Counted from the first letter of the whole stretch, positions 1-45,530 are shown. The stretch is 63,617 nt of DNA, filler included, from an uncultured Methanosarcinales archaeon (GCA_964385185.1; 5 parts of 5 records of this genome joined end to end with filler, not necessarily neighbours in it), one strand, 5' to 3'. Notes: generated from the letters alone by a model not told the origin. Translations and numbers: made by a program.

Positions 1-60
1 ATTTTCCCAAATTTTCTCCGCTATGCTCCGAAAACTTCTTTTATCCCAAATGTTAAGTTC
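1..60 (+). other. 3' part of an attC-like recombination site (truncated by window start)
   Basis: Ends ...AACTTCTTTTATCCC-AAAT-GTTAAGT (GTTRRRY at 52-58); CCAAATTT...GAAA(A)CTTC segment resembles the equivalent part of the site at 3521-3624. Confidence 0.55.
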
Positions 61-110
61 AATAAATCTGGAGTACTTGATGTAAACTTTAAGAGGGCTA
101 TTTCTGGATA

Positions 111-677
111 TTAGGGTCGCTGTAACGATTGTAAAATCTCTTCTGAATTCATAACCTCTCCAAAATGTGACTTTATTGTTTTTAATGTATTCTCATGAAT
201 TACTGGATCAGAGGTAAAAGTCAAATCTGAACTAAATAAAACATTAAAGTCCCTAAACATAGCTGATCTTGCTGTTGACTCACAACAAACATTCGTCATT
301 GTACCTGTGATAATAATATTCTTAATCCCCTTTGCTTTCAATATAACTTCTAAATCTGTACCAAAAAAAGCATCATATCTTCTTTTCTTAATCATAATAT
401 CACTTTTCTCTGGCAAAAGTTCATTATGTACCTCTACTCCTTTAGTCCCCTCTCTTAAACCTTCTATTGCTAAACTTGGAAATAGTTTTGCTTCTACAGG
501 ATTATGTACAGTATCAAAAATATGTTTTGTGTAAATTATTGTAATCCCTCTCTTTCTACATTCGTCAATAAAAGACTTAAACTGAGTAATTCTATTGCGA
601 ATTCCTTTAACTTCAATTAATGCTCCATCTTCTACAAAATCATTTTGCATATCTATTACAAGTAATGCTGTTTTCAT
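111..677 (-). CDS. Isochorismatase-family cysteine hydrolase
   Basis: ALLVIDMQNDF, K-RYDAF, GTMTNVCCESTAR motifs; start moved to ATG 677 behind GGAGGT SD. Confidence 0.92.
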   Translation of the reverse strand: MKTALLVIDMQNDFVEDGALIEVKGIRNRITQFKSFIDECRKRGITIIYTKHIFDTVHNPVEAKLFPSLAIEGLREGTKGVEVHNELLPEKSDIMIKKRRYDAFFGTDLEVILKAKGIKNIIITGTMTNVCCESTARSAMFRDFNVLFSSDLTFTSDPVIHENTLKTIKSHFGEVMNSEEILQSLQRP

Positions 678-681
678 TTTC

Positions 682-2559
682 TTACCTCCTGTACTGAACA
701 TTTTGATCATACCAAACCATTGTTGTTAGTAACTTAAACACATCATTGGTTCTAACATCACGACCTGAAACTATGTCTGCATCTTCACTTATCGGTCTCC
801 ATTCCATCAATTTAGCTCCAGCTTCTTCTGGATTATCAAAAGTTGATTCTAACTCTTCAATTCGTCCAGAGTAATTCCTTGCTATCTCTCCAAAAGTATC
901 TCTGTTAAAATAATTCCAAAAGCTTTCATCAACATTGTTAATTCTTTTTCCAAACTCTTCGGCAATTGCTTTATGATAATCAATATGGGCAGCTGCTGGT
1001 AATGGTGCTTTTCCTCTAGCATAAATCTCTTCAGGAAGTGCGTCTTTGAACGCTTCTCTTAGGACATACTTCTCAGTATCTTCTCTAATCTGATATTCTT
1101 GAGGAATTTCTAAACATGTTTCAATTACATCAACGTCTTGAAATGGACATCTTGCTTCTAATGACTGAGCCATTGCACACCTATCGTTAGCTTTATTCAA
1201 GAATCCAAGAAAATCCACTGCATAAAGCCCCATCATTCTTCTTGTTGAATCAGAGGTGTCAAAAGATGAGTAAATATCAACCAGATAATCAACTCCTATA
1301 TCTAAATCAACATCATCATTGAACAATTTTCTGACATATTCTTTTCTTTGTGCAATAAGCTCTCTAAATCCTTCTTCGGTTTTACATTCTTCTTGATCAG
1401 ATTTCAATCCAGGAAATTTATGCCAATAGCCCCAATTAAATTCATCAGCACCTTCCCCTGTCAAGACAACTTTCACACCATTATCTGCAAGAACTTTGTA
1501 GTTTCTAAACATAGCTAGTTGTCTAATGCTGTCATGAATACCTAAAGCACCAACCATTTCTTCTAAGTCATCAAGAAAATTTTCTGGAGAAATATCACTA
1601 GAAACTAGTCTGACATTATCTCTGCTATCAGCTAGAATTTTGGCGTGTTCATAATCAGGATTGCTTGATTGAGCCGTGTATCTAATACAAGATGCTACAA
1701 TTTCATCATCATAATTATCAGCTGTAACAGCAGCAATTATACTTGAATCAAGACCACCACTTAAAGCCACCCCTACTTTTACTTCATCAGGTATTCTTTT
1801 TTTAATTCCAGCTTCTAGTTTAGTTCTTAACTCATCTACAGCATCTTCTAAAGATAATGGCTCTTCAATATCATTAATTGGTAATTGATAAAATCTTTTT
1901 CTTTTCAACTGACCTTCTTTTGATATTGAAACTACTTCACCAGGTTTTAATGATTGAATTCCTTCATAAGTTGAGCTTCCAAGAGGTTCTTCACCAGCTG
2001 CAAAAGCTGAACCAATTAATAATTGTGCAGCAACTCCTTCCAAATTTGGCTGAAAACCATTAGTTGAAACTAGGGCGGTTGGATGAGAACTGAAATTAAC
2101 TGTTTCTCCTTCAAGAGAGAAATATAATGGTTTCATTGCTGTTCTATCTCTAGCTAAAATTGTTTCACCAGTTCTTTTATCATAAATTGCAAATGCAAAT
2201 TGCCCATTTAACTTATCTAAAATTCCTTTACCTAAAGTAGTAAAACCTTCCAATAATACTTCAGTATCACAATCTGTCCTGAATGAAACACCTTGTTTTT
2301 CAAGTTCCTGTCTTATTTCTCTGTGATTGTAAACTTCTCCATTAAATGTAAGAACATAATTGTCATTTTCCATTGGTTGATCTGCTTCTCTATTATCTAC
2401 ATCAACTATGGCTAATCTAGTATGACCTAAAACAGCATTGCCATTTCTAAAAGTACCTTGTCCATCTGGACCTCTGTTTACCAAAACCTCATTCATTGAT
2501 TGAACGGTTTCTTCAAGTCCTGATTGGTTGGAATTGATTATTCCATTTATTCCACACAT
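682..2559 (-). CDS. asnB: Asparagine synthase (glutamine-hydrolysing)-like amidotransferase
   Basis: MCGI Ntn N-terminus, RGPD, FNGEVYN, LSGGLDSS, TGEGADE, EARCPF. Confidence 0.9.
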   Translation of the reverse strand: MCGINGIINSNQSGLEETVQSMNEVLVNRGPDGQGTFRNGNAVLGHTRLAIVDVDNREADQPMENDNYVLTFNGEVYNHREIRQELEKQGVSFRTDCDTEVLLEGFTTLGKGILDKLNGQFAFAIYDKRTGETILARDRTAMKPLYFSLEGETVNFSSHPTALVSTNGFQPNLEGVAAQLLIGSAFAAGEEPLGSSTYEGIQSLKPGEVVSISKEGQLKRKRFYQLPINDIEEPLSLEDAVDELRTKLEAGIKKRIPDEVKVGVALSGGLDSSIIAAVTADNYDDEIVASCIRYTAQSSNPDYEHAKILADSRDNVRLVSSDISPENFLDDLEEMVGALGIHDSIRQLAMFRNYKVLADNGVKVVLTGEGADEFNWGYWHKFPGLKSDQEECKTEEGFRELIAQRKEYVRKLFNDDVDLDIGVDYLVDIYSSFDTSDSTRRMMGLYAVDFLGFLNKANDRCAMAQSLEARCPFQDVDVIETCLEIPQEYQIREDTEKYVLREAFKDALPEEIYARGKAPLPAAAHIDYHKAIAEEFGKRINNVDESFWNYFNRDTFGEIARNYSGRIEELESTFDNPEEAGAKLMEWRPISEDADIVSGRDVRTNDVFKLLTTMVWYDQNVQYRR

Positions 2560-2668
2560 TTTGTTTCACCTATCATACTATTAAACTAACACATTCTTAA
2601 ATAAGAGTGTCCCCTTACAAGACGACTTTTAGAAAGTTTTATAAATAAGCAAGTATTTTAGGTTTTTA

Positions 2669-3427
2669 ATGGAGCTACAAGAACTGCGTAGAATCGGACT
2701 TACAGATGGAGAAATTAAAGTATATGAAGCACTCTTAGAGCTAGGAGAATCAACGAAAACAGCCTTAGCTAAAAAATCAGGAATTGCTCCCTCAAATATC
2801 TATGATGTAACTAACAGATTAATTGAGAAAGGGATTATCTCTAAAGTAGAGAAAAATGGTGTTGCTCACTTTAGTCCAGCTAATCCTAAAAGAATTCTTG
2901 ATTTTTTAGAACAAAAAGAAAAAGAGATGCAGAAAGAGAGGGATTTTGTAAATACTATTTTACCTACTCTATTGTTAAAATTTAGCGAAGCTAAAGAAAA
3001 AACTAATGTTGAAGTTTTCTCTGGATGGAATGGTATGAAAACAATTTTTGAAGATCTAATTGATGAATGTAAGAGAGGGGATCAAAATTACATTTTTGGA
3101 GCAAGTAGAGGGGAAAGTGACAAACAAGCAGATAGATTTTTTGTAAAATATTCTAAATTAAGAGAGCAAAGAGGGATTATTACTAACATTATTTTCAACA
3201 AAGAACTAAAAAAACGAAAAGCGAGAATCGATTTTTTTCTTAAATCAAAAAAATATAATGTTCGTTTTCTATCACAGGTAACTCCAGCTGAGATCATGCT
3301 GTATAAGAACAAGACTTGTATTATCATATTAACTAAAGAACCTTTAGTAATAAGAGTCACAAGTCAAGAGGTTATGAAGAGTTTTAAACAATACTTTGAG
3401 ATAATGTGGGGAACAGCGACCCAATAG
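2669..3427 (+). CDS. TrmB-family transcriptional regulator
   Basis: IGLTDGEIKVYEALL...IYDVTNRLIEKG HTH; C-terminal FKQYFEIMW. Confidence 0.88.
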   Translation: MELQELRRIGLTDGEIKVYEALLELGESTKTALAKKSGIAPSNIYDVTNRLIEKGIISKVEKNGVAHFSPANPKRILDFLEQKEKEMQKERDFVNTILPTLLLKFSEAKEKTNVEVFSGWNGMKTIFEDLIDECKRGDQNYIFGASRGESDKQADRFFVKYSKLREQRGIITNIIFNKELKKRKARIDFFLKSKKYNVRFLSQVTPAEIMLYKNKTCIIILTKEPLVIRVTSQEVMKSFKQYFEIMWGTATQ

Positions 3428-3520
3428 ATACTAAACTAGATTCTGTAAATGTTAGGAAATTGCCCTTTGTACTCCAGATTTACTTTGCTTCGCAATCCCT
3501 CCCACTTCGTAGTCGGGAGA

Positions 3521-3624
3521 ACTTAACAGCAACTATGCGATTACGTTCCGGTCGCCACTTCGTAGCTCCTTCCACTTCATCCAAATTTCCCTTCGGGAAA
3601 CTTCGCATAGTTGCAATGTTAGTC
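3521..3624 (+). other. attC-like site
   Basis: ACTTAAC (RYYYAAC) 3521-3527; 12-bp inverted repeat GCAACTATGCGA/TCGCATAGTTGC; GTTAGTC 3618-3624; internal CTTCG-loop hairpins. Confidence 0.65.
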
Positions 3625-4167
3625 TCCAACATAACTATCAGTAATAATAACTTCATTACCCCAATCAACCGTGATAGGTTCTTTATGTTCTAATACAACA
3701 TTAGCTGTAATCAAATTCTTAGGTATTGAAGGATTATAAGGCCCTTCTGCAACTTTTACATCATCAACCATAAATGCCTGCCCTCTATCAACATGAAAGG
3801 TATATAATAATTTGTGAGGGTTACCATCAAATAAATCAAAACTACTAGTCTGCATAGGAGGTATACCTCCTTCAAGAGCTTTGGCACCCATATTATAGAT
3901 AATCTTTAACCCAGCAATCTGTCTACTATTAATCAGTACAATATAATCAGGAATTAATCCAAAGTGATGTTCAACCTCTTCCATTGAACCTTGAAAATTC
4001 ATAACAACAGTACCCTCTCTTTTATTTTCAAAATCACTTGGCTGATATAAAGCACCATAAGTAAACTCACTAGGGGGTTTAAACATCTCAAATCTTTGTT
4101 CAACATACCAAACCCCACTTAATAACAAGAACGCAACTCCAATAATAATCAAAGCACCATGTTTCAT
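3619..4167 (-). CDS. Hypothetical membrane-anchored protein
   Basis: 182-aa ORF with N-terminal hydrophobic helix; family not recognised. Confidence 0.7.
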   Translation of the reverse strand: MKHGALIIIGVAFLLLSGVWYVEQRFEMFKPPSEFTYGALYQPSDFENKREGTVVMNFQGSMEEVEHHFGLIPDYIVLINSRQIAGLKIIYNMGAKALEGGIPPMQTSSFDLFDGNPHKLLYTFHVDRGQAFMVDDVKVAEGPYNPSIPKNLITANVVLEHKEPITVDWGNEVIITDSYVGD

Positions 4168-4233
4168 ACTCTAAATGAGATGTCATTCTTTAAAAATCTA
4201 TTCCCCATATCTAAAATAAGTATCTCTCAAAAG

Positions 4234-4277
4234 GCTCGCAGTCGTAAGACTGCGAGAGTTGGCACTCTGTGAGTGCC
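4234..4277. repeat. Twin-hairpin REP-like repeat, family A copy 1
   Basis: Reverse complement matches 51423-51466 at 43/44 nt. Confidence 0.9.
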
Positions 4278-4312
4278 TCCACCCCTACCTTTCCAAAACC
4301 CAAGACACAATA

Positions 4313-4320
4313 TTTATAAA
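4313..4320 (+). promoter_or_regulatory. TATA box for the uORF-cysE-cysS unit
   Basis: TTTATAAA centred about 27 nt before ATG 4343. Confidence 0.65.
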
Positions 4321-4342
4321 CCTCCAACCATTACCATTCCTT

Positions 4343-4366
4343 ATGTCAACAAACTGCTGTTGCTAA
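4343..4366 (+). CDS. Putative cysteine-sensing leader peptide MSTNCCC
   Basis: ATG TCA ACA AAC TGC TGT TGC TAA, ending 30 nt before cysE. Confidence 0.65.
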   Translation: MSTNCCC

Positions 4367-4396
4367 TTCTACCATTTAACTAGTCTGAGGTATAAA

Positions 4397-4948
4397 ATGA
4401 CATTCCTATCAACACTACAAGAAGATATAAAACAAGTAAAAAAGAACGATCCTGCAGTTAAGTCTCTACTAGAAGTACTCCTCTGCCACACTCCATTACA
4501 CGCAATACTTATACATAGAATAATCCACCCTTTAAGAAATATCCCTATCCTCCCCAGATTCCTCTCACAAATAAATCGATTCATAACAGGAATTGAAATT
4601 CATCCAGGAGCAACCATAGGAAGAGGATTTTTCATAGACCATGGAATGGGAATAGTGATAGGAGAAACAACAATCATTGGCTCTCACTGCCAAATGTTCC
4701 ATGGAGTAACGTTAGGAGGGACAGGCCATCATAAAGGCAAGAGACACCCAACGATTGGAAATAATGTCTACATCGGTATGGGCGCAACAATCCTAGGACC
4801 CATAAAAATTGGAAATAATGTTAAAATCGGTGCAAACACATTCATAATCATGAAGAACATACCAGACAATTCAACCGTTGTAGGCTATGATCCAAAAATA
4901 GTAAAATTAAATGGAAAGAAAGTTTCGCAAAATCTACAAAAAGCATAA
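4397..4948 (+). CDS. cysE: Serine O-acetyltransferase
   Basis: [40 protein letters not shown]. Confidence 0.93.
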
Positions 4949-4980
4949 AGAATAAAAACACCAAAGAGGTATAACAAAAA

Positions 4981-6375
4981 ATGGCATTAAAACTATACAA
5001 CACGTTAACAAGAACACTTGAACCTTTCAAAGAGATAAAGAAAGGAGAAGTAGGTATCTATGCGTGTGGACCAACAGTATACAACTATGTCCATATAGGA
5101 AACTTACGAGCGTACATCTTCTACGACTTAGTATCAAAATATCTAAAGTATAAAGGTTACAAAGTAAAATTAGTCTCCAACATCACAGACATAGATGATA
5201 AAACAATAAGAGATTCTCAAAAGAACAACCAATCATTAACAGAATTTACCGAAAAATACACCAAGGCATACATTGAAGACCTCACAACATTAAACATCGA
5301 TCTACCTGATGAAATGCCAAAGGCAACCGATTACATTAACCAAATGGTAGACATGACGAAAAAACTCCTAGAAAAAGGTCATGCATACAAAGCAGGTTCT
5401 TCAATCTATTTCAAAATTGATTCCTTTAATAAATACGGACAATTAGCTAAGTTAGACAACTTCGACCAATTAAAAAAGAATGCTGAAGGTCGTCTTTCCG
5501 ACGCAGATGAATATGAAAAAGACGATGTACGAGACTTCGCACTCTGGAAAGCGTACGAAGAAACCGATGGCGATGTATTCTGGGAACCAGATATAGGAAA
5601 AGGCCGCCCAGGATGGCATATTGAATGTTCTGTCATGTCTTCAGACTTATTAGGACCAACATTTGACATGCACTTAGGTGGTGTAGATTTAATCTTCCCT
5701 CACCACACAAATGAAATTGCTCAATCAGAAGGCACAACAGGCAAGAAGTTTGTCAATTACTGGCTACATAACGAACATCTCTTAGTAGAAGGAAAGAAAA
5801 TGTCAAAATCTTTAGGAAACTTCTACACTCTAAGAGATTTAGAAGAAAAAAATCACAAACCTGAAGCTATCAGATATCTTTTACTAGCAACACACTACAG
5901 ACAGAAGTTAAATTTCACACTAAAATCTTTAGAAGCTGCTCAAAACTCAGTAGACAGACTACAAGATTTCTACCGAAATCTAACCCATATCAAAGCCACA
6001 AAAAATCATCCTAAAGTAAAACCTTTAATTGAAAAGGCAAAAGCAGAATTTGAAAAAAAGTTAGATGATGATCTAAACATTTCAGAAGCGTTAGCTGTAA
6101 TTTTCGACTTCATGAGAGATATTAACAAATTAGAACTCTCAAAGCAAAATGCAGAGGATATTATCACTGTAATCAAACAATTTAACACGGTTATAGGAGT
6201 CATCCAAACAGAACAAGACGATCTAGAACCTGCTTTTCAAGAACTCATAGATCAAAGAGAAGAAGCAAGAAAAAATAAAAACTTCGAAGAATCCGATAAA
6301 ATAAGAAATGAATTAAAAAAGAAAGGAATACTCTTAGATGACACCTCAGAAGGAGTCATCTGGAAGAGAACTTAA
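4981..6375 (+). CDS. cysS: Cysteinyl-tRNA synthetase
   Basis: YACGPTVY, HIGN, DFALWK, GRPGWHIECS, KMSKS. Confidence 0.98.
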   Translation: MALKLYNTLTRTLEPFKEIKKGEVGIYACGPTVYNYVHIGNLRAYIFYDLVSKYLKYKGYKVKLVSNITDIDDKTIRDSQKNNQSLTEFTEKYTKAYIEDLTTLNIDLPDEMPKATDYINQMVDMTKKLLEKGHAYKAGSSIYFKIDSFNKYGQLAKLDNFDQLKKNAEGRLSDADEYEKDDVRDFALWKAYEETDGDVFWEPDIGKGRPGWHIECSVMSSDLLGPTFDMHLGGVDLIFPHHTNEIAQSEGTTGKKFVNYWLHNEHLLVEGKKMSKSLGNFYTLRDLEEKNHKPEAIRYLLLATHYRQKLNFTLKSLEAAQNSVDRLQDFYRNLTHIKATKNHPKVKPLIEKAKAEFEKKLDDDLNISEALAVIFDFMRDINKLELSKQNAEDIITVIKQFNTVIGVIQTEQDDLEPAFQELIDQREEARKNKNFEESDKIRNELKKKGILLDDTSEGVIWKRT

Positions 6376-7172
6376 TAATTTTGTTCCTTTCGAAAAGATA
6401 TTCCTCTTTGCATTCTATGTAACCCAAAAAAATCCTCAGCTTCAGGTTCGGAAGTCCAAGTGCCAGGTTTACCAGTTTTCTCAACATGAGTACTTATATC
6501 ATGCTGACTTGACCATCTAGTAAATCCTTCAGATCCTGTAGAATCGGCTAACCTCGGATTATCATACCCACCAAATTGAAGTTCCTGATGAGCAGCATCA
6601 CTCAAATCTGAAAACAATACTTCTCTAGCTCCAAGTTTTACAACATTGGCAAGATTAAAGGTTTCATCCTCTCCCAATAAATAAACTGCATCCACTAATC
6701 TTGGAAAGAAAGATACATCTCCTGAAGCAGTTCCATTTTGATTTCCATAAAGATCAGATAATTCTTGTACATGCTTTGAATCGGGAATTCTTTCCACAGC
6801 ATACATTAAATCGTCTGGATTAACTCCTGTGGAGGCAACTTCTAAAAGTTCATCAACATTACCACCTATTTCAGTCCAAGTTTTTAATACATGATCAAGA
6901 CCAAATTTTGATCCAGCTAAATAGAGATCAACTGTTTGTACTGCATCGATTGTAGTGACATAATTGTCTGAAATTTCTTGATACATTTCCATTAATTTTG
7001 GAGTTGGCTTAAATCTACTTAAAGGACCGTCAGGAACCCAATTAATTTGACGTAATTTATTCTGAGGATTTCCATTCCCATTAGAATGTTGAAATTCTAA
7101 AATGTCGATTTCAGCTTGATTCGCTTTTCTGCCCTGCTTTTCTGCAGCTGATGTATCATATTTTATTGCCAT
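6372..7172 (-). CDS. Hypothetical protein
   Basis: Long ORF; SD-like GAGGGTGG before ATG 7172. Confidence 0.65.
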   Translation of the reverse strand: MAIKYDTSAAEKQGRKANQAEIDILEFQHSNGNGNPQNKLRQINWVPDGPLSRFKPTPKLMEMYQEISDNYVTTIDAVQTVDLYLAGSKFGLDHVLKTWTEIGGNVDELLEVASTGVNPDDLMYAVERIPDSKHVQELSDLYGNQNGTASGDVSFFPRLVDAVYLLGEDETFNLANVVKLGAREVLFSDLSDAAHQELQFGGYDNPRLADSTGSEGFTRWSSQHDISTHVEKTGKPGTWTSEPEAEDFFGLHRMQRGISFRKEQNY

Positions 7173-7301
7173 TGTATACCACCCTCGTTGTATCTTTAGA
7201 GAATTTGACTTTTTATATAATTTATCAAATTCCACACTAAAAAACGCATTAATCCCTTATAAGAATAACTATCCCTCAAGAAACAAAGTACGAATTACGT
7301 A

Positions 7302-7610
7302 CTACAATCTCCAGAAAATTTTCTCAAAATCAGGCATAGGCTCTATCACAGGTTCAGTATCTCCCTGAATTTCTGTCATCCTTTGATATACTAAAGAGAT
7401 AAAAAAATAATTTTTCATCATCCCTACCATGGATTTTTTTAAAATATCTTTGGTACATGGAACAGATTGATACACAACAAAAGGCTTACATCTCCTTTCC
7501 CGATTACTATTCAACCTATCCGAGTGATATACATACAAGTGATTAGGATCTTTCCCCTCTTCTCCATTGCAAACATATTCCTTCCGAAATCGATTAAAAT
7601 GTATATCCAT
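7302..7610 (-). CDS. Hypothetical protein
   Basis: 102-aa ORF downstream of valS. Confidence 0.5.
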   Translation of the reverse strand: MDIHFNRFRKEYVCNGEEGKDPNHLYVYHSDRLNSNRERRCKPFVVYQSVPCTKDILKKSMVGMMKNYFFISLVYQRMTEIQGDTEPVIEPMPDFEKIFWRL

Positions 7611-7642
7611 AAAAATAGAAATTTCCCCTCATTATTAAACCT

Positions 7643-10039
7643 TTACAATTCAACTTCAACTTTCATCTCTTCACCTTGTTCATACTCTACTGTCTCAGCT
7701 CCAGTAGTACTACGAACATCACCTTCAATCTTCTCAAATTCCTTAACATCAATCTTACCAATTATACTCAAAACTTTAACAGGTTCCTTCATACTCAATT
7801 GTTTTTCACTTTTAGCTTTTCGAACTTCTCCAACCACAAAAACAATTAATTCTCCCAAAGCAGAACAATCGTCTACCTTAACAGGCAGTGGCCAAGAAGA
7901 AACATGGATACTATCCAACTTTTCCCTCTCACTATAATAAAGATGATAAATTTCCTCAGTAATGTGAGGCATAATCGGAGCCATCATTTTCAAAACTCCT
8001 AATAATCCATGATACAAAGCATACTGTGCACTTTTCCGACCTGCTTCCCCTCTTTTATCAGGATTGTAAATTCTATCTTTAATAATCTCCAAATAATTAT
8101 CACAAAACGTTTGCCAAAAGAACTTATCAACATCAGCTTTGGTCCGAGCATACTCATACGTATCAAAACTTGAAGTAGCATTCTTAATAACCGTATTCAA
8201 CTCACCTAAGAACCATTTATCAACACACTCTAATTCAACCTTCTCATCGGTAAAATCTTCTAGATGCATGAAACAGAACTTAGAAGCATTCCATAATTTG
8301 TTAATAAATTTCTCACCTGTAACCAAATCTTTCTCTTGAAAACTTAAATCATCTCCTAATTTCGAACCAGCAGACCAATATCGTAAACTATCTGAACTAT
8401 ACTTCCCTATCATTTCTTGAGGTTCAACAACATTCCCCTTACTCTTACTCATTTTTTTCCCATGAGGATCCAAAGCATGCCCTGAAATCATAACATCTTT
8501 CCAAGGTTTCTTACCAGAATGCAATTGACTCTTCACAACCGTATTAAACAGCCAAAACGTAATAATATCGTGAGCCTGAGGACGTAAAGACATAGGAAAT
8601 AAATCTTTTTGAACACTTTTAGGCATCAATTCAATAGCCAACTGAGGAGTCAAACTACTCGTAGCCCACGTATCCAGAATATCTTCCTCAGGAATAAACT
8701 CACTACATCCACACTTTTTACATTTCTTAATCGGTGGCTTATCCACTAAAGGATCAACAGGCAAATCATGTACAGATGCAACTACAACCTCATCACATTG
8801 TTTACAATACCAAACCGGAAAAGGAATTCCAAAGTATCTCTGACGACTAATCAACCAATCCCACGCTAAACCTTTAACCCAATGATCATACCGGACTTTC
8901 ATATGTTTAGGATACCAATTTAATTCTTTACCCCATTCTAGCATCTCATCTCGTTTATCCAAATAGGAAATAAACCATTGTTTGGAATTAATAAATTCAA
9001 TAGCAGTACCACATCGTTCGTGCACATTAACAGCATGCTTAATCTGTTTCTGTCCTTTCAACAAACCAGCTTCATCCAAATCTTTAAGAATCTCTTTTCG
9101 AGCTTTTTTAACATACATCCCTGTATAATCTCCAGCCAATGCAGTCATATGACCATCTTCACCAAGAGCTTCAATAATCGGTAAGTTGTGAGCCTTTTGC
9201 CATTCCATATCAGTCTGATCACCAAAGGTACAACACATTACTGCACCTGTCCCTTTTTCAGGATCGGCACGTTTGTCAGGAAGAATATCAACAGTATGTC
9301 CAAAAAGAGGAACAGTTGCTTTCTTCCCTTTATATTTCTCAAACCGTTTATCATCAGGATGATAAAAAACTGCAACACATGCAGGTAATAACTCAGGTCT
9401 AGTCGTCCCTATCACTAATTCCCCATCACCAACTTTAAACACGATATCATTAAACTGACTATCAACTTCTTTATCTTCAGCTTCAACCTGGCTAATACCA
9501 GTCTGACATTCAGGACACCACATGGTAGGAGCTTCCTTTCGATACTCTAATCCTTTCTCATACAACTCCAAAAAACTACGCTGACTTATTTTCTGAGAAT
9601 GCTTATCAATAGTATCGTAAAATATCTTCCAATCACAACTCATTCCTATTTTTTTCCAATCAGCAATATATGCAGGACGCAATTCATTATCTAAGGTATC
9701 TAAGCAAATCTTCCTAAACTCATCTCGATCCATATCCTTACTCTTCACACCTTTCATCTGTTCAATCAATCTCTCAGTAGCTACTCCATTATTATCAGTT
9801 CCGAAGGGATAAAAAACTCGTAAACCTTTCATTCTATTATATCGAGCAACAAAATCTTGCTGAGTATAACTAAACGCATGTCCAATATGCATCTTACCAG
9901 AAACAGTAGGCGGTGGAGTATCAATACTAAACACCTTACCCTTGCCTTTGACATCAAAAGTATACACTCCTTTTTCTTCCCAATACTTCTGCCATCTAGC
10001 CTCGGCTTCATTACTATCATACTTCTTACTCATATCCAT
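7643..10039 (-). CDS. valS: Valyl-tRNA synthetase (archaeal type)
   Basis: DTPPPTVSG-MHIGH, DWLISRQR, KMSKS; about 800 aa. Confidence 0.98.
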   Translation of the reverse strand: MDMSKKYDSNEAEARWQKYWEEKGVYTFDVKGKGKVFSIDTPPPTVSGKMHIGHAFSYTQQDFVARYNRMKGLRVFYPFGTDNNGVATERLIEQMKGVKSKDMDRDEFRKICLDTLDNELRPAYIADWKKIGMSCDWKIFYDTIDKHSQKISQRSFLELYEKGLEYRKEAPTMWCPECQTGISQVEAEDKEVDSQFNDIVFKVGDGELVIGTTRPELLPACVAVFYHPDDKRFEKYKGKKATVPLFGHTVDILPDKRADPEKGTGAVMCCTFGDQTDMEWQKAHNLPIIEALGEDGHMTALAGDYTGMYVKKARKEILKDLDEAGLLKGQKQIKHAVNVHERCGTAIEFINSKQWFISYLDKRDEMLEWGKELNWYPKHMKVRYDHWVKGLAWDWLISRQRYFGIPFPVWYCKQCDEVVVASVHDLPVDPLVDKPPIKKCKKCGCSEFIPEEDILDTWATSSLTPQLAIELMPKSVQKDLFPMSLRPQAHDIITFWLFNTVVKSQLHSGKKPWKDVMISGHALDPHGKKMSKSKGNVVEPQEMIGKYSSDSLRYWSAGSKLGDDLSFQEKDLVTGEKFINKLWNASKFCFMHLEDFTDEKVELECVDKWFLGELNTVIKNATSSFDTYEYARTKADVDKFFWQTFCDNYLEIIKDRIYNPDKRGEAGRKSAQYALYHGLLGVLKMMAPIMPHITEEIYHLYYSEREKLDSIHVSSWPLPVKVDDCSALGELIVFVVGEVRKAKSEKQLSMKEPVKVLSIIGKIDVKEFEKIEGDVRSTTGAETVEYEQGEEMKVEVEL

Positions 10040-10105
10040 AATAATCTAAATTCTAACTGTATTTTTAAGCCTTATGGCAAATAATCTATCTAACACAAGC
10101 AGATA

Positions 10106-10191
10106 CCACTGGACTTAGTCCTTGCATTTCCAGCTAATGGTCTGGAAATGCAGAAGGACTGGGACGCTGTGCGTCCCTACAAGTCCAATGG
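10106..10191. repeat. GC-rich branched palindromic element
   Basis: Closing stem CCACTGGACTT/AAGTCCAATGG enclosing hairpins GCATTTCCAG/CTGGAAATGC and GGGACGC-TGT-GCGTCCC. Confidence 0.75.
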
Positions 10192-10252
10192 AACAGCCGT
10201 ATTCATAAAGTCTTATCTAAAACTTTAAATACTCTCAACTCAAAAACTAACC

Positions 10253-10906
10253 ATGCCTAAAACTCATAAAAAAATAAATAAAGAATATTTCCGTATTGCA
10301 ATCTTTGGTTCTGCAAGAACAAAAAGAAACGATCCTCGTTACAAAAAAGTCCACAACCTAGCCAAAGAGATTGCTGAAGAAGGGTTAGACATCGTAACAG
10401 GAGGTGGCCCAGGATTAATGGATGCAGCCTCAAGAGGACACCATAGAGGAAGAAAAAAATCAAAAATTCAAGATCCATACAGCATAGGATTAACAATAAC
10501 GCTCCCACATGAGCAGAAAGACGCATTCCATCTTGATATCAAAAAACACTTCAATCGTTTTTCTAATAGATTAGATACATTTATGGAACTATCCAACGTA
10601 GTAATAGTAACTTCTGGGGGAATTGGAACCCTCCTCGAATTAATGTATTCTTGGCAACTGCTCCAAGTGGGCCAGGTAAAAGACGTCCCTATAATACTAT
10701 TAGGAAATGAATGGAGGGGACTCCTAAAATGGATTAAAAAAGAAATGTTAGGAAAAAAATTCATCAGTAAAAAAGATTTTGATTTCATATTTATGGCAAA
10801 AAACAATAAAGAAGCAATGAAATTAATAAAAGAATTCTATGGAGATTATGTAGTAAAGCGCCATATCTCAGCAGATTTTAACCGATTTAGACTGCATAAA
10901 ATATAG
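10253..10906 (+). CDS. LOG family protein
   Basis: IFGSAR, TGGGPGLM, GGIGTLLEL. Confidence 0.9.
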   Translation: MPKTHKKINKEYFRIAIFGSARTKRNDPRYKKVHNLAKEIAEEGLDIVTGGGPGLMDAASRGHHRGRKKSKIQDPYSIGLTITLPHEQKDAFHLDIKKHFNRFSNRLDTFMELSNVVIVTSGGIGTLLELMYSWQLLQVGQVKDVPIILLGNEWRGLLKWIKKEMLGKKFISKKDFDFIFMAKNNKEAMKLIKEFYGDYVVKRHISADFNRFRLHKI

Positions 10907-10953
10907 TCTCTTGAACAAATAACTACTTAAACCACCCCATCTACCCTCAATAC

Positions 10954-12156
10954 ATGCTCCCTTTTATAAAAAAATATCAACCTACATTAGACACGATTAA
11001 AGGCCAAGATTCTGCCATTCAACAACTTACCACTTTCTTAACCAATTTTAAAAATCAAAAAAAAAAAGCATTATTTCTCTGGGGACCCTCAGGAGTCGGT
11101 AAAACTTCTTCAGCTGCTGCTTTAGCAAAACAATACAATCTAGACTTAATTGAAGTAAACGCTTCCGATGTAAGAAATAAGAATCAAATCCAAGAGCGTT
11201 TAGGAAACGCTATTCAACAACAATCCTTATTCAGCGAGGGAAAACTAATTTTAATTGACGAAATTGACGGCCTATCAGGCAGAAAAGATAGAGGGGCAGT
11301 ACCAACCATCGCAAAACTCATAGATAAAACAACTTTTCCCATCATAATTACAGCATACAATCCATATGACCAAAAATTAAACACAATCAGATCAAGATCT
11401 ATGCTAGTAGAGTACGCTGCTCTAGACTATCTTGCAATAACAGAAATACTAAAAATTATAGCAAAAGAAGAAAAAATCACCTATGATGAAACTGCAATAA
11501 AAACACTAGCAAGACGAGCAGGAGGAGATGCGAGGGCTGCTATTAATGATTTCCAAATCCTCACACAGGACAACAAACTCACAAAGGAATCCATTGAATC
11601 TCTCCATGACAGAGAAAGACAAGAAAATATCATCCAATCATTACTAAAAGTATTCAAAACAACCAATCCTCAAGTGGCGCTTCCTGCATTTGACTATGTA
11701 GCAGAAGACACCGATAAAATTCTGTTATGGATTGATGAAAACCTCCCCAAAGAATACAAAAAAAACGAAGACTTAGCAAGAGCATACGAACATCTCAGCA
11801 AAGCTGATATCTATAAAGGAAGAATTAGACGTTGGCAACACTGGAGATTTATGGTGTATATTTACCACCATTTAACGGCAGGAATAGCAACGGCAAAGGA
11901 GGAAAAATATCCAGGATTTTCCAGTTACAAACCTACTATGAGAATATTAAAAATCTGGCAAGCTAATATGAAACATGCTAAGAAGAAAGCCATCTCTAAG
12001 AAAATAGCGATACACACTCACACATCAACAAGACGTGTATTAGAATCAACATTTCCCTACTTCAAAGAAGCATTTAGATCCAACAAAGATTACGCAGAAG
12101 GCATGACAGAAACTCTAGAACTAGACAAAGACGAAGTCGCATGGCTTAAGAAATAG
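10954..12156 (+). CDS. rfcL: Replication factor C large subunit
   Basis: GPSGVGKT, EVNASD, IDEIDG, GDARAAIND, WIDEN. Confidence 0.93.
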   Translation: MLPFIKKYQPTLDTIKGQDSAIQQLTTFLTNFKNQKKKALFLWGPSGVGKTSSAAALAKQYNLDLIEVNASDVRNKNQIQERLGNAIQQQSLFSEGKLILIDEIDGLSGRKDRGAVPTIAKLIDKTTFPIIITAYNPYDQKLNTIRSRSMLVEYAALDYLAITEILKIIAKEEKITYDETAIKTLARRAGGDARAAINDFQILTQDNKLTKESIESLHDRERQENIIQSLLKVFKTTNPQVALPAFDYVAEDTDKILLWIDENLPKEYKKNEDLARAYEHLSKADIYKGRIRRWQHWRFMVYIYHHLTAGIATAKEEKYPGFSSYKPTMRILKIWQANMKHAKKKAISKKIAIHTHTSTRRVLESTFPYFKEAFRSNKDYAEGMTETLELDKDEVAWLKK

Positions 12157-12181
12157 TAAACATTAATAACTTCTTACATAA

Positions 12182-12472
12182 TCTGAAGCATATGACCACA
12201 ACACATGGTATAAAAAAGATCCTAAAGATCATAGAAGGCAAGAAAGAAAACTCTATTTCCCCAAAGTATTAGATGAAAAATACAAGGAGATCCCTAATTT
12301 TTTAATATTAGGATCATACGCTCTTATTATTGATGTCCAAGATGACGAAGTTTTCTCTCTTTTAATCCGTCACAAGAACATGGCAGATGCATTAAAAACA
12401 ATTATTAGAATAATCAATGATTCTGCTACCTTACCAGAAGGATTCAAAGAAGGACCGCCTATAAAGTTGTAA
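12182..12472 (+). pseudogene. Possible remnant of a TrmB-type C-terminal domain
   Basis: Open frame with no start near its 5' end (…FSLLIRHKNMADALKTII…). Confidence 0.3.
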
Positions 12473-13385
12473 TAGGCCTACTCTGCACTATAAACAATTC
12501 ATTATCTTCAATACACCATTCAATATCTTGAGGACTCCCATAATGTTTCTCAATAGCAACTCCCATTTCAGAAATAACCTTAAGCTCTTCTTCATTCAAA
12601 ACCTGTTCATCACTATTCTCTAATTCTTTTTCAACATTCTTCCCATTCTCAAGAAACAATCCTTTCTTCTTAGAACCAATAGTAATATCTTTAACTTCAC
12701 CTTCACGTGAAACTAAATAAGTATCAGGAGTAATCTGTCCTGCAACAACTAATTCACCGAGTCCAAAACTTCCTTCAATAACCATTTCCTTCCGATCCTT
12801 AGTAACAGGATTAACCGTAAACAAGACTCCAGCCTTAGCACTCTCTACCATTTTCTGAACCACAACAGCAATTAATACTTCATCATGCTTAAAGTTATTC
12901 TTCTCTCGGTAATAAATAGCTCGAGCAGTAAAAAGAGAAGCAAAACACTCAACAACAGCTTGTAATACATCCTTTTTTCCTTTAACATTCAAAAAAGTAC
13001 TTTGTTGTCCAGCAAAACTCGCCTCAGGTAAATCTTCTGCAGTAGCAGAGCTTCGAACAGCAACATACCCCTTTCCCAATTCTACATAACTATCAGAAAT
13101 GGCATGTTTTACTTCATTATCTAAGTTACACCCCAATATAATCTGTTGACACTCAACAGCAATCTTATCAAGCTTCTCAGAATCTTCTACATCGAGCCCT
13201 GCTAACTTACTCATAAGCTCACTCTGCACTTGAGAAACAAATTCTTGGTAAGCTTGTGCTGTAACCACAAAACCAGGAGGAACAGGGATACCAGCCTTGG
13301 ACATCTCACCCAATGAAGCCCCTTTACCACCAACTATGGAAACATCATCCTTTCCCACGTCAGCAAACCATTTTACATCTTCCAT
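12459..13385 (-). CDS. Stand-alone PEP synthase/PPDK N-terminal ATP-grasp domain
   Basis: GGKGASL, VRSSATAED, SFAGQ, PQDIEW, VQSRPIT; stops before the His domain. Confidence 0.9.
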   Translation of the reverse strand: MEDVKWFADVGKDDVSIVGGKGASLGEMSKAGIPVPPGFVVTAQAYQEFVSQVQSELMSKLAGLDVEDSEKLDKIAVECQQIILGCNLDNEVKHAISDSYVELGKGYVAVRSSATAEDLPEASFAGQQSTFLNVKGKKDVLQAVVECFASLFTARAIYYREKNNFKHDEVLIAVVVQKMVESAKAGVLFTVNPVTKDRKEMVIEGSFGLGELVVAGQITPDTYLVSREGEVKDITIGSKKKGLFLENGKNVEKELENSDEQVLNEEELKVISEMGVAIEKHYGSPQDIEWCIEDNELFIVQSRPITTL

Positions 13386-13441
13386 ATAATAGAGAATCTC
13401 CTAGGAATATAAAAAGATAATGAAAAAAAAAAGAAAAAAAA

Positions 13442-14533
13442 TTAAATAACAGCTGCAACGCCGTTATTCGCTTCTTTAACATCATATACTGCTTTTTCAA
13501 GATCTCCATTGGAATCAATAGTGATAACACCACTAAATCCTTGGTAATCTTTCACATTATACAATGCTTCTTTGACAACAACTGGGTTGGTACCAAACTC
13601 TCTAAAGATATCTGCCAAAATCATGACGTTATCATATCCTTGTTGAGTTCCAAGTGAAGCTTCAATCCCTTTTGCTTTCATTTTAGCGTCAAACTCTTCA
13701 CTAGGTGGTGTAGAAGGAACTAAAAACCTTGCACCATCTCCTGCACTAGCTGCTTGTTCCCATAGGGTATCATCTGCCCATGAGTCTCCACCAAGAACTT
13801 TAGCATCAATACCAAGTTCTTTCATTTGAGTAAGTAAAGCAACACCAGACTGAGTATAGCTTAAAATATATACAACATCTGGATCGCTGTCTTTAACTTT
13901 AGTCAACTGACTTCGTAGATCAACACTACCTTGTGCAAAATCTTCTTCAGCAACAATGTTTCCACCAATGCTTAGTAAATGTTCTTTAAAGACATTCTTC
14001 ACACCAACACACCAATCTCCTTGGCAGTTCATAATAGCAATTCTCTCTCCAGCAAGATCATTCAAAACATATTCAGCAGCAACTTTCCCTTGGAAAGCAT
14101 CGCTCGGGTAACTTCTAAAGATATAATCTCCAGAGTTAGTAATATCTGGATTACTTGATGTTGGACTAAACAGTACAACTCCAGCTTCTTCAGCAATAGG
14201 AGCAGCTCCTAGTGTTTCACCAGAACATAATCCACCCACAATAAACTTAACACCATCGATGTTAATTAATTTGTTAGCAGCGTTAGCTCCTTCTTTAGGA
14301 CTACATTGTCCATCTTCATAAATAGCTTCTAGTAATCTTCCATTAATACCGCCTTCGGCATTAATTTCTTCAATTGCTGTACCAACAGCAACTTTAATGT
14401 TTACACCTAAGAAAGCAACATCACCTGTTAAAGGCCCAATACTTCCAATCTTGATTGGTCCTTCTGCAGTTTCAGTCGCACATCCTGATAATACTACCAG
14501 TAATGCAATTCCAAGAATAATAACATGTTTCAT
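13442..14533 (-). CDS. LivJ/K-type ABC substrate-binding lipoprotein
   Basis: LSGC lipobox, IKIG…PLTG, EINAEGGING, YIFR-YPSD. Confidence 0.88.
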   Translation of the reverse strand: MKHVIILGIALLVVLSGCATETAEGPIKIGSIGPLTGDVAFLGVNIKVAVGTAIEEINAEGGINGRLLEAIYEDGQCSPKEGANAANKLINIDGVKFIVGGLCSGETLGAAPIAEEAGVVLFSPTSSNPDITNSGDYIFRSYPSDAFQGKVAAEYVLNDLAGERIAIMNCQGDWCVGVKNVFKEHLLSIGGNIVAEEDFAQGSVDLRSQLTKVKDSDPDVVYILSYTQSGVALLTQMKELGIDAKVLGGDSWADDTLWEQAASAGDGARFLVPSTPPSEEFDAKMKAKGIEASLGTQQGYDNVMILADIFREFGTNPVVVKEALYNVKDYQGFSGVITIDSNGDLEKAVYDVKEANNGVAAVI

Positions 14534-14609
14534 TGTTAACCCCCTAGCTATAAATAGCTAATAGCAACATAAAACACATAACATATATAAAATTTACTCT
14601 ATAAATCGG

Positions 14610-14810
14610 TCAAAGCGCTCGCCTTCTAAACTCTCTAAATCCACAATCTACTCCACCACATCGTTGATTATCCATTATTCTTTGATAGTCAGCACTATAT
14701 TCTTTCAAATCTTCCATATCTTTGTCTAGTTTAACACGTTTAAATCGTTGATTTCTAAACTTCAATGATACTATTTCCTTTCGTACATCTTCAGCATGTT
14801 CTCCATTCAT
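14610..14810 (-). CDS. Hypothetical protein
   Basis: 66 aa, ATGA overlap with the RHH gene. Confidence 0.5.
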   Translation of the reverse strand: MNGEHAEDVRKEIVSLKFRNQRFKRVKLDKDMEDLKEYSADYQRIMDNQRCGGVDCGFREFRRRAL

Positions 14811-14935
14811 TTTAACATCCTCCTAACTGCATATTCAATAAAATGACTCTTATTTCTAAACAAACCATCTTTGAGTTTACCATCTATAGAAGCCAATACT
14901 TTATCATCCATACTAATACTAACCTTTTTCTTCAT
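14807..14935 (-). CDS. Ribbon-helix-helix (CopG-like) protein
   Basis: MKKKVSISMD…FRNKSHFIEYAVR; GGGGAG SD. Confidence 0.75.
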   Translation of the reverse strand: MKKKVSISMDDKVLASIDGKLKDGLFRNKSHFIEYAVRRMLK

Positions 14936-14954
14936 ACATTCTCCCCAACTACAA

Positions 14955-15053
14955 AAGTAGTAAGAATTACTACTAAGTAGTAAGAACTTATATTTAAACC
15001 TATGCCAAAAAAGAACACAAAGTTTAAATACTATAACTATAACTATAGTTATA
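14955..15053. promoter_or_regulatory. Divergent promoters with operator-like palindromes
   Basis: AAGTAGTAAGAA x2 (14955, 14975); TTACTACT-A-AGTAGTAA; TATA TTTAAATA 15023-15030; perfect palindrome TATAACTATAGTTATA 15038-15053. Confidence 0.55.
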
Positions 15054-15248
15054 ATGACTACAACAATACAAATTTCGGACACAACAAAGCAACTTTTGGA
15101 AACCTTCAAGACAGAGAAAAAAACATATGATGATATTATTAGAGAATTAGCCCATAAAAAGTTAAAAATTCCAAAATCAGGATTTGGTATGACACCAGGA
15201 TTGTCATGGAATAAAGAGGAGGACAGACTAGACCTAGATGACAGATAA
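15054..15248 (+). CDS. VapB-type antitoxin
   Basis: MTTTIQIS…TYDDIIREL; overlaps PIN gene. Confidence 0.75.
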   Translation: MTTTIQISDTTKQLLETFKTEKKTYDDIIRELAHKKLKIPKSGFGMTPGLSWNKEEDRLDLDDR

Positions 15249-15624
15249 ATACGTTATAGATACTTCTGCCTGGATTGAGTATTTTAGTGGAACCAAATTG
15301 GGAAAAAAGGTACAGCCCATAATAGAAAAAGCAGAAATTGGTACATCTTTCCTAGCTATTGCTGAACTCGCTGACAAATTTACTAGATCTGGGAAAGAAA
15401 TTAAGCAACCTCTCGATATTATCAGATCAAAGGCAGCATTACTACAACTTTCCACCAATATTTGCCTCAATGCAGGGTCACTTAAGAATAAAATCAGAGA
15501 GAAAAAACCAAAATTTGGCCTTACTGACGCACTTCACCTTGCAACTGCAATCGACGAAAAAGCAATCCTTGTAACTACAGATAATGATTTTCAAGACACA
15601 GAACATGCTCTTGTAATAAATTAA
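15238..15624 (+). CDS. vapC: VapC-type PIN toxin
   Basis: VIDTSAWIEYF, IAEL, DALHLATA, LVTTDNDF. Confidence 0.88.
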   Translation: MTDKYVIDTSAWIEYFSGTKLGKKVQPIIEKAEIGTSFLAIAELADKFTRSGKEIKQPLDIIRSKAALLQLSTNICLNAGSLKNKIREKKPKFGLTDALHLATAIDEKAILVTTDNDFQDTEHALVIN

Positions 15625-15636
15625 AAATAAAAAGAA

Positions 15637-17074
15637 TTAACGATCAAACCTACCTTCATTCCGCTTTCTCACACCTGCAATCTCATCAGCATTCATTCCA
15701 GGCAACACAGGCTCAATAGGTATCGAAGTACTTCCTTTAATCCCACATATCATTTTAAAGTATTTTGTAGCAGACTCTCTCAGACGTTTTCTAGGATGTG
15801 TCAAAACTGTCGGCAAAGCCAAAAAATCCAAACATTGAAACAATTCTGGATTCTCCAACATCTCTTCAACCTGACTTTCATATAACTGTGCATCTAATCC
15901 ACCAGTCCATCCAGCATTACCTGGTGCAAAATCTTTAGTCACGTGAGGCCTTGGAATTGCTCCATATTTCTTATACATATCCTTACAAAATTTGTATGCC
16001 AATTTCAGAGTCTTTCCACTATCAGCTTTATTATGGCCAAATACCATCAATGACTCAGGAGTAACTCCTAAAACCTTACTTGTAGTAATAATAGTACTCA
16101 GACAATATTTTTCATCTTTATTATGTCCTTTACCAATTTTATTCCACAAAGCAGCAGTCATACCATCTACACCATAACCAACAGTATGAAATCCAGCTTT
16201 TACTAGGTCTTGTAAGACTTCAGGAACTCTCGTTTTTAAGTACGGAACTTGGTCTAGTATTCTCTTTTCAACTTTCTTTGGTTTTACACCTTGCAAAAGA
16301 AAAATATCTTGATCTTCCTTTTCCCATAAGTTCACATAGGATTCAACACAGGCTAAACCTCTAAGATTAATCTTAAAGCCTTCATATTTCTCCTTAAGGT
16401 CAATTACATTCTTCGCAAAAGTGTGCAATTCATCAGGTGTCTGAAATACATCTAAGTTTGACATATAGATATTCAGTTCATTGACACCAAAATCTCTCTG
16501 CTTGTTAATCAAATATTCTAATTCATCCTTCATAATACCTTGGTCTCGGTACTTTTCACCAACATTGGGCTGACCAGGCCTATTCCTATCAGCAGTACAA
16601 AAACTACAAGCTTTCGCACATCCTTGAGAAACATAAAAACTAAACTCTCTTCCCACTTTTTCTCCTTTTTCATTTACTTGAGTCAGATATTTTTCCAAAT
16701 ATCCTTGCTTATCTAATTGTTCATATGCAGGAATAAGTGAAACTTCCTCAGGTGCAGGCAATTTACTCTGATCCATTATACTAAAAGGATCATCAACCAA
16801 CTGCTCCAAAACATCACTTCGATTACCATTCAAAGCATCATCTCCAAATAACTCATGAAACTGATCTTCAGGCAATTGTTCAATAACTTATCCACCTAGA
16901 TATACTTGAGCATCTGGATACTCTTCTTTTACTTCTTTTTTTCTCCGTATAGCATCAGGAACATAAGGATGTCCTAGAAGACCGACAGCTACATGTTCAC
17001 CCACCAATTCTGCAAGCTTAATATTCTCATCATGGAACTTAACATCCACTCCAGCAGCCATTAATCGAGCTCCT
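15637..17074 (-). pseudogene. Radical SAM protein, 5'-truncated, with in-frame TAA
   Basis: CAKACSFC motif; frame open to the contig end except TAA at 16888-16890 (…VYLGG*VIEQL…). Confidence 0.7.
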
Positions 17075-39029: not shown

Positions 39030-39034
39030 GAAAA

Positions 39035-45525: not shown

Positions 45526-45530
45526 AGTTT

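Follow-up and report, generated by a model that had tools for sequence, protein, structure and literature searches.

Does the three-gene segment at the start of this stretch of archaeal DNA, which lies between two hairpin-forming sequences resembling the attC sites of integrons, constitute a movable gene cassette, and to what kind of system would such a cassette belong? The stretch as a whole (hereafter “the window”, 63.6 kb) consists of separate contigs of a metagenome-assembled genome (MAG) strung together via linkers of N and TTAATTAATTAA; the segment and its two sites, A and B, lie on the first contig, positions 1-17074. An initial annotation had proposed that positions 53-3618 are one excisable unit. 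We conclude, with a probability of a little under 0.8, that they are one cassette in an integron-like array of a marine DPANN (Woesearchaeota-type) archaeon, with a TrmB-family regulator and a divergent amidotransferase/hydrolase operon as cargo. This conclusion is carried by a family of covarying sites, by their arrangement in arrays, by a rule of complementarity between neighboring sites, by an asymmetry between the strands of the sites, and by a recombinase gene adjacent to arrays. The parts of the unit are as follows; R1 is a covariance model made from four sites, Z, A, B and C, and “private clamp” denotes complementarity beyond the terminal boxes of the sites.

Positions 1-60, plus strand: site A, 3' part, truncated by the contig start (partial R1 match, model positions 54-107, 37.9 bits).
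Positions 61-123, plus strand: left non-coding end, with the 3' strands of the private clamp at 63-76 (TAAATCTGGAGTAC), 91-104 (AAGAGGGCTATTTC) and 114-123 (GGGTCGCTGT).
Positions 53-3618, no strand: cassette unit as delimited by the initial annotation (neighbor complementarity and flank pairing matrix).
Positions 3413-3518, plus strand: right non-coding end, with the 5' strands of the clamp at 3413-3422, 3455-3468 and 3469-3482.
Positions 3519-3626, plus strand: site B, attC-like (R1 101.6 bits, a match by construction, as B is a training member; architecture scan).

The motifs named in the initial annotation all lie where it placed them: GTTAAGTTC at 52-60, GAACTTAAC at 3519-3527, AATGTT at 3615-3620 and a stop codon at 3619-3621. 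The 12-bp inverted repeat that it described is present as well (GCAACTATGCGA, 3529-3540, and TCGCATAGTTGC, 3603-3614). These elements fit into a fuller architecture. In site B, the 5' box R'' (GAACTTAACA, 3519-3528) is followed by L'' (3529-3540), by variable hairpins (3541-3602) with C-GAA-G loops on the minus strand, by L' (3603-3614), by an AA bulge (3615-3616) and by R' (TGTTAGTCTC, 3617-3626). The 3' part of site A comprises the tail of variable hairpins (AAATTTTC..GAAAACTT), L' (CTTTTATCCC, 39-48), a bulge (49-50) and R' (TGTTAAGTTC, 51-60). A metagenome contig, L082, is 99.97% identical to window positions 1-3605 and reaches 973 nt further left. On it, site A is complete (L082:3546-3645, minus strand), with the 5' box R'' TCATATAACA and with L'' GGGATAAAAG, which pairs with 39-48 in a 10-bp stem (GGGATAAAAG/CTTTTATCCC). 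The upstream half-site that the cassette proposal predicts thus exists, and there is more: leftwards of site A lie an Asp/Glu racemase gene and then a further site, Z. The fourth site is on another contig of the window.

Positions 59664-59822, plus strand: site C, complete (R1 66.2 bits, also a training member; folds).

Z, A, B and C have one plan in common: nnnnnTAACA, a 10-12-bp stem, 44-105 nt of variable hairpins, the return of the stem, 2-3 unpaired nucleotides, and TGTTAnnnnn. Among these four, 8 of 17 stem pairs are changed on both sides and 95.6% of cells are paired, a result that 0 of 500 shuffles reached. The fold z-scores are -3.5 and -3.0 for site B and -5.95 for site C on the minus strand. 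Further, 3450-3620 is a GC island (46-50% GC vs ~32% in the surroundings) that folds strongly on either strand. The initial annotation took the coincidence of the distal GTT with a stop codon to suggest insertion at a secondary site. This idea is unsupported: B has every element of a canonical family site (TAACA, 12-bp stem, AA bulge, TGTTA) and is merely the last on its contig, where a search with the complement of 3617-3690 found no next cassette.

The site family is both large and structurally constrained. R1 sites at E<=1e-3 occur in 51 of 150 sampled genomes (34%) of the order of G001, the Woesearchaeota MAG with the closest AsnB-like gene (the 51 include the unpublished G132). A phylum-level sample of 150 genomes, which has some members in common with that of the order, has sites in 58 at E<=1e-5. 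Matches beyond the training sites are independent and score 40-85 bits; G001 itself has one site. The ~58 kb remainder of the window has no further copy, and with filters off none other appears in 1-17074. The sites form same-strand clusters with 0.1-7.5 kb spacing, of which L193 has nine sites within 6 kb, L191 six, L192 five, and L194-L196 four each. In a set of 62 distinct sites, pairing holds in 96.3% of stem cells and double changes occur in 11 of 17 pairs, values that none of 500 shuffles matched. The TAACA and TGTTA boxes hardly vary, being present in 57-61 of the 62, and the family (site length ~85-170 nt) has the consensus G[C/A]A-N-N-TAACA-GGRATTWARMGG ... AACT-TCKYTWAATYCC-GA-TGTTA-NNYNC. 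Its L stem is kept by pairing (10 of 12 pairs double-changed, 95.7% of cells paired), and its sequence is also fairly conserved. The initial annotation remarked on the lack of an obvious extrahelical base, and rightly so: the 12-bp L stem has no unpaired column across the family, and the only unpaired features are a G.T/A.C pair at the apex and the 2-nt bulge that separates L' from R'. The bulge between the R and L boxes is one-sided, with 2-3 nt (GA, AA or AAA) on the 3' arm. As for the R boxes, B and the 3' end of A fit RYYYAAC/GTTRRRY; A's own R'', Z and C are off at one position.

How the sites relate to each other is the core of the argument. The initial annotation held that a cassette's first bases complement R'' of its own attC; here they do so at 5/5 positions in the R-box extension and at 24/24 over two stems. 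A neighbor-rule test was made in seven arrays (that of the window and six from other genomes), in which the reverse complement of a site's last 5 nt was compared with another site's first 5 nt. The next site in the array gave a 5/5 match in 17 of 28 pairs (mean match 4.1), against 3 of 35 for the same site in cis (mean 2.2) and 48 of 1162 (4%; mean 2.1) for non-neighbor sites. Flank duplexes were likewise stronger between neighbors (-20.3 kcal/mol) than in cis (-15.6; Mann-Whitney p 3.5e-4) or between other pairs (-15.3; p 1e-6). The local sites show the same division, in that the inner stem of each pairs in cis and the DNA outside the inner stem does not. The best partner of the 5' flank of A is the 3' flank of Z (cofold gain -21.8 vs -11.1 with its own), and that of the 5' flank of B is the 3' flank of A (-36.8 vs -4.0 with its own).

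At the two ends of the cassette, this relationship is visible as four colinear inverted blocks, found in 51-123 and 3413-3528. Positions 51-60 are the exact reverse complement of 3519-3528 (10/10) and 63-76 that of 3469-3482 (14/14); 91-104 is an approximate complement of 3455-3468; and 114-123, which overlaps the 3' end of the isochorismatase gene, is complementary to 3413-3422 at 10/10 positions. Two small hairpins at the right end (3485-3495 and 3496-3518) have no left-end counterpart. The exact 9-bp inverse pair that the initial annotation read as a boundary sign is real and is part of this longer repeat. Alone, it is near chance: 1-3700 holds 110 inverted 9-mer pairs vs 67 +/- 11 in 50 shuffles, and among 2000 shuffles 5.85% produced an inverted 9-mer linking 1-110 with 3428-3618. 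A gapped local-alignment score of the two flanks was also tried and rejected; it was 42.5, with 0 of 1000 shuffles as high, yet other same-contig windows scored 41.0 and the direct orientation 51.5. This score fails to discriminate, and significance therefore rests on the family-wide neighbor rule.

The boundary of the unit follows from the same pairing. When 3618 is joined to 53 in silico, the joint closes a long hairpin of -89.4 kcal/mol, vs -54.7 for the native continuation into the 182-aa open reading frame (ORF) beyond site B. Placement of the crossover is limited to the invariant bulge-TGTTA stretch, at 49-55 and 3615-3621; by analogy with attC, the exact point would fall between the G and the TT of GTT. 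If strands were exchanged in TGTTA and all 3' DNA went to the next unit, 53-123 would be expected to mirror 3413-3528. With the site family real and widespread and the neighbor rule obeyed, the proposal of 53-3618 as one unit between attC-like sites is supported. Two features had been called unusual, a view that finds no support. The cassette's length of 3.57 kb is within the inter-site range of the seven arrays (94-7498 nt), and cassettes of TrmB plus a divergent gene are also present in G007 and G019.

The two strands of the sites are not equivalent. The complement of the model strand (the “bottom” strand) folds better as DNA in 55 of 61 sites, by a mean of 1.64 kcal/mol. Top-strand GC skew is negative in 59 of these 61 sites and AT skew in 51; CGAAG, which gives the C-GAA-G loops, occurs 71 times on the bottom strand vs 3 times on the top. 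For attC bottom strands, Nivina et al. (2016, PMC5027507) likewise describe an enrichment in purines, a lower energy of folding and a GAA loop.

A candidate enzyme is encoded next to many arrays. Matches to NF040815 (XerA) at E<=1e-30 were compared by hand with R1 sites. Among the best 150 of 209 matches, at least 19 genomes have a XerA-like gene on the same contig as the sites, 240-6949 nt from the sites' 5' end and on the opposite strand (G003, G006, G007, G018, G019, G029, G040, G043, G052, G056, G062, G066, G074, G099, G105, G113, G134, G135 and G136). No other geometry within 7 kb was seen among these best 150, and four same-contig cases among the matches listed are farther off, at 9.8-132 kb. 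The array-adjacent copies score 186-236 bits with NF040815, around its cut-off of 220, and many of the genomes have a second, higher-scoring XerA elsewhere (240-282 bits); the array-linked copy thus looks like a paralogue. We also weighed the opposite polarity of the sites, with the top strand on the minus strand of the window and the genes running in the direction of the sites. It was rejected because the recombinase gene, in at least 19 genomes, lies 5' of the TAACA-to-TGTTA direction and because the purine-rich, GAA-loop strand is the complement.

Is the enzyme an integron integrase? TIGR02249, the integron integrase family model, is passed at its cut-off in 0 of 5 array-bearing genomes (best 130.5 vs 265 bits), and all of its matches in these five skip model positions ~182-240. 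From this gap, together with the description in PMC9668308, this interval would correspond to the IntI-specific domain. Two array-adjacent proteins, of 275 and 278 aa, match TIGR02249 below cut-off and in two stretches. The 278-aa protein aligns with Pyrococcus abyssi XerA (4A8E), its closest solved relative, in a single stretch (E 1.2e-47), and with VchIntIA (2A3V) in two.

Taken together, these observations suggest how a cassette might move. By analogy with attC, the purine-rich bottom strand would fold as single-stranded DNA, and a tyrosine recombinase would exchange strands in the invariant TGTTA/TAACA box, such that all DNA 3' of the crossover would pass to the next cassette. In a circularized cassette, 53-123 and 3413-3528 would close a long stem under site B. 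The enzyme is likely a XerA-derived paralogue encoded divergently at the array's 5' end, which here, judging from relatives, would be left of site Z and off the contig. Single-strand folding, the exact crossover, the acting enzyme and continued mobility of this cassette are what we infer from these patterns.

The cargo comprises three genes, and a fourth gene abuts the cassette.

Positions 111-710, minus strand: isochorismatase-family hydrolase, 199 aa (PF00857, E 1e-44).
Positions 682-2559, minus strand: AsnB-like glutamine amidotransferase/asparagine synthase-family enzyme, 625 aa (PF00733, E 2e-50; GATase_6, GATase_7).
Positions 2669-3427, plus strand: TrmB-family transcriptional regulator, 252 aa, divergent from the two-gene operon (PF01978, E 4.7e-15).
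Positions 3619-4167, minus strand: neighboring ORF, 182 aa, outside the cassette; its stop codon (3619-3621) is inside R' of site B, and a domain search gave it no family match.

This cargo is accessory, and its distribution is patchy. The AsnB-like gene is found in 3 of 400 sampled genomes of the order (E<=1e-80). G001 (locus L001) keeps the TrmB, AsnB-like and isochorismatase genes at 72, 65 and 55% identity, between unrelated genes, and inverted repeats around this module are AT-rich, chance-level pairs only. The two-gene operon is also present in Moraniibacteriota and Bdellovibrionales MAGs, at 51-60% identity. As a side observation, one bacterial relative (L083, 2210-2330) has, after the operon, an apparent S-adenosylmethionine (SAM) riboswitch upstream of metK, recognized by eye. 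In G019, a related cassette holds TrmB, a pyridoxal phosphate (PLP) enzyme, a class IV aminotransferase and the AsnB-like gene, with an R1 site (70.8 bits) 158 nt after TrmB. A 12/12 inverted repeat stands beside both of its terminal stop codons (L200, G019:C21, 81-92 and 4881-4892) and has a GCGACCC core in common with window 114-123/3413-3422. The initial annotation had named, as evidence against a cassette, relatives that keep these genes in fixed synteny without flanking sites. Half of this picture is borne out: G001/L001, L085 and G239 have the genes without flanks. Their neighborhoods differ, however, and G019 has its site after TrmB. Other cassettes carry a TrmB and prenyltransferase pair, SurE, an AbiEii-like ATPase or a nucleotidyltransferase, in mixed orientation, and another holds a 7.5-kb type III restriction-modification unit. 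Gene orientation is mixed in the cassettes of L192 and L196 as well.

The stretch was found in 20 runs from 16 studies, of marine and hydrothermal-vent metagenomes; there were no RNA runs among those listed as holding it. The k-mer depth at sites A and B is 3-4x that of the intervening genes in each of four metagenome runs examined, with variant copies and divergent continuations. The 3618-to-53 joint, an empty site or a contig that skips the cassette was not seen in these four runs, where only short Logan contigs ending at the sites were found; as Logan contigs break at the sites, the absence of a joint or empty site says nothing either way. A degenerate pattern derived from the outer clamp had 0 matches in viral contigs.

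What other explanations might account for these sites? They could be structured non-coding RNA genes, A and B being a split or permuted RNA gene, as their strong folds (z -3.5/-3.0 for B, -5.95 for C on the minus strand) and covarying stems might lead one to suppose. We hold this to be very improbable. Rfam 15 has nothing at gathering scores for the whole window and nothing at E<=10 around sites B and C, and ARAGORN finds no tRNA in 1-8000. A genome carries several copies, arrayed beside a recombinase gene; the halves that pair can be separated by as much as 7.5 kb, with protein genes of either strand in between; and the C-GAA-G loops and purine skew fit described attC bottom strands. A split or permuted RNA gene resembling that of the signal recognition particle (SRP) was dropped as a candidate after the arrays, the neighbor rule and the recombinase linkage emerged. 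An improbable explanation, if less so, is that the sites are passive intergenic structured repeats, similar to miniature inverted-repeat transposable elements (MITEs), repetitive extragenic palindromic (REP) sequences or terminators, that spread alone and do not move the genes between them. A and B are located where genes end, the three genes occur in relatives that have no sites there, and the window has other intergenic GC-rich hairpin repeats, e.g., 4234-4277 and its counterpart 51423-51466, with 7x flank depth. Independent insertions, however, should pair best in cis, whereas the pairing observed is with the neighbor. In at least 19 genomes, the co-oriented arrays have a divergent recombinase gene linked to one of their ends, no target-site duplication was seen at the ends of A or B, and the ~58 kb of remaining window lacks another R1 copy; cis-pairing terminal repeats, target duplication and dispersed copies, by which MITE and REP elements are recognized, are not features of these sites. 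A terminal-inverted-repeat transposon was rejected as well, as neither a transposase nor a target duplication is present.

It is unlikely, too, that the array is a classical integron cluster of attC sites lacking an adjacent integrase (CALIN), in which the sites would be ordinary attC sites and a true IntI, encoded at another genomic location, would act on them. Several features would fit such a cluster: the AAC/GTT boxes, the L box, the variable terminal structure, the GAA loops and the purine-rich, more stable bottom strand. The very title of NF040815 in NCBIfam (“site-specific tyrosine recombinase/integron integrase”) includes “integron integrase”. Ghaly et al. (2022, PMC9668308) report archaeal integrons with IntI-domain integrases and, for the most part, as CALINs, in phyla that include Nanoarchaeota. 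Their total is 75 archaeal genomes, Asgard-enriched, whereas the present site family is in 34% of sampled genomes of one order. Further, no array-bearing genome of the five passes the TIGR02249 cut-off, the IntI-specific segment is skipped, the array-adjacent proteins are of 275-278 aa with the 278-aa one fitting XerA in one stretch and VchIntIA in two, and the 12-bp L stem has no unpaired base inside it.

Several observations weigh against our own reading of 53-3618 as a cassette of an integron-like array. The 63.6-kb window has no tyrosine recombinase; as the initial annotation had also noted of the part it viewed, no integrase is in sight, with 0 of 68 scanned ORFs matching PF00589. G001, G239 and L085 carry the cassette genes without any site. 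Eleven of 28 neighbor pairs fall short of 5/5, for some of which overlooked sites may account. The E-values of R1, a model of only four sequences, are rough. Of the wobbles, the one conserved best (pair 22-204, G.T in 45 of 61 sites) is on the top strand, not the bottom. Cassette genes here and elsewhere face both ways and have their own regulator, unlike the promoterless cassettes of classical integrons, which mostly hold a single ORF and share one orientation. Finally, the 14-bp outer clamp of site C forms its pairs in cis (59593-59606 with 59826-59839, 13/14 plus a G.U on the minus strand). This site is set between a ribosomal protein L10e gene, 424 nt away, and a second Asp/Glu-racemase-like ORF (59910-59979, at the contig end), whose start follows closely; neither this clamp nor this gene setting is predicted by a simple array model.

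The cassette reading invites comparison with known systems. The resemblance to integrons is extensive: hairpin sites that stand in arrays, all facing one way, and that have AAC/GTT boxes, an L box, a terminal structure that varies, and a purine-rich, stabler bottom strand with GAA loops; a cassette start that complements the 5' box of its own site; a divergent tyrosine recombinase gene at the 5' end of the array; and accessory cargo, some of it common to both domains. The differences are also plain. In relatives, the recombinase is XerA-like, of 275-278 aa, without the IntI-specific segment. The sites have a conserved 2-nt bulge and no extrahelical L-stem base, and their L stem is conserved in sequence (GGRATTWARMGG). 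Complementarity extends 24-60 nt past the box, in private clamps, and cassettes are often multi-gene, with their own regulator and mixed orientation. Four traits set the system apart from published integrons: the type of enzyme, the absence of extrahelical bases, the long private clamps, and multi-gene cassettes that bring their own regulator. The Vibrio cholerae repeats (VCRs) of sedentary chromosomal integrons have three extrahelical bases, which are not seen in the archaeal sites; host domain and enzyme type are different as well. Like VCRs, the sites are long (~100-130 nt), similar within a genome, branched and variable in terminal structure, and set in chromosomal arrays; VCR2 is 133 bp in length (PMC5027507).

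Xer systems provide a second point of reference. P. abyssi XerA, of the archaeal XerA/dif system for chromosome resolution, is the closest solved relative of the array-adjacent recombinase. The dif site is a single short duplex site; here there is instead an array of folded sites of ~100 nt. The pdif modules of Acinetobacter plasmids and the integrative mobile elements exploiting Xer (IMEX) are gene modules or elements between Xer-type sites that are moved by a housekeeping-type recombinase. Their sites are 28-bp, duplex and dif-like, in alternating orientation, whereas those described here are long hairpins in a single orientation. Full-text literature searches for XerA-linked cassette arrays gave no report of any; the supplementary lists of PMC9668308 may include some as CALINs.

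The remainder of the window has features of its own, and as its linkers join contigs, neighborhood across them carries no meaning.

Positions 17075-17174, 34240-34339, 49082-49181, 59980-60079 and also 39327-39426, no strand: N blocks of the linkers around TTAATTAATTAA.

A second type of GC-rich double-hairpin repeat, intergenic and partly between divergent gene starts, is present at 4234-4277 and 51423-51466 (inverted, 44 nt, 98%), and further GC-rich hairpin repeats are at 46646-46701, with a counterpart at 51478-51533, and at 10112-10216. R1 has no significant match to these repeats. In all four metagenome runs examined, the bin 4117-4263 reaches ~7x the depth of its flanks and continues in several different ways. 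Exact or near-exact direct repeats in 38860-39560 (e.g., 39033-39087 = 39272-39326) surround a 100-N block and are accompanied by a weak tRNA match (39461-39537, 30.4 bits); this cluster is an artefact of the assembly or, if not, a tRNA-linked element present in repeated form. Genes for the origin-associated proteins OapC and OapB (45142-45899 and 46544-46753) adjoin a long intergenic GC hairpin, and this may be the replication origin region. Within a gene for a GLUG-motif protein, an 81-nt unit is repeated five times in tandem (62841-63322).

Beyond this single cassette, we lean toward a broader proposal: that an analogue of the integron operates in this DPANN order, in which a XerA paralogue without the IntI domain would capture and shuffle cassettes via folded bottom-strand sites and private clamps. 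With sites in a third or more of the sampled genomes, it would be common, and it would be a main route by which accessory and cross-domain genes, the present amidotransferase/hydrolase operon among them, enter very small genomes. What defines integrons is IntI with its extra domain. If the proposal is true, the capture of cassettes at folded sites evolved, or persists, outside the IntI clade. The sites, the strands and the candidate enzyme are defined well enough for the recombination assays in use for archaeal attCs. The proposal, if true, would also supply a concrete mechanism of gene gain for the reduced genomes of DPANN archaea, including the gain of bacterial-like operons.

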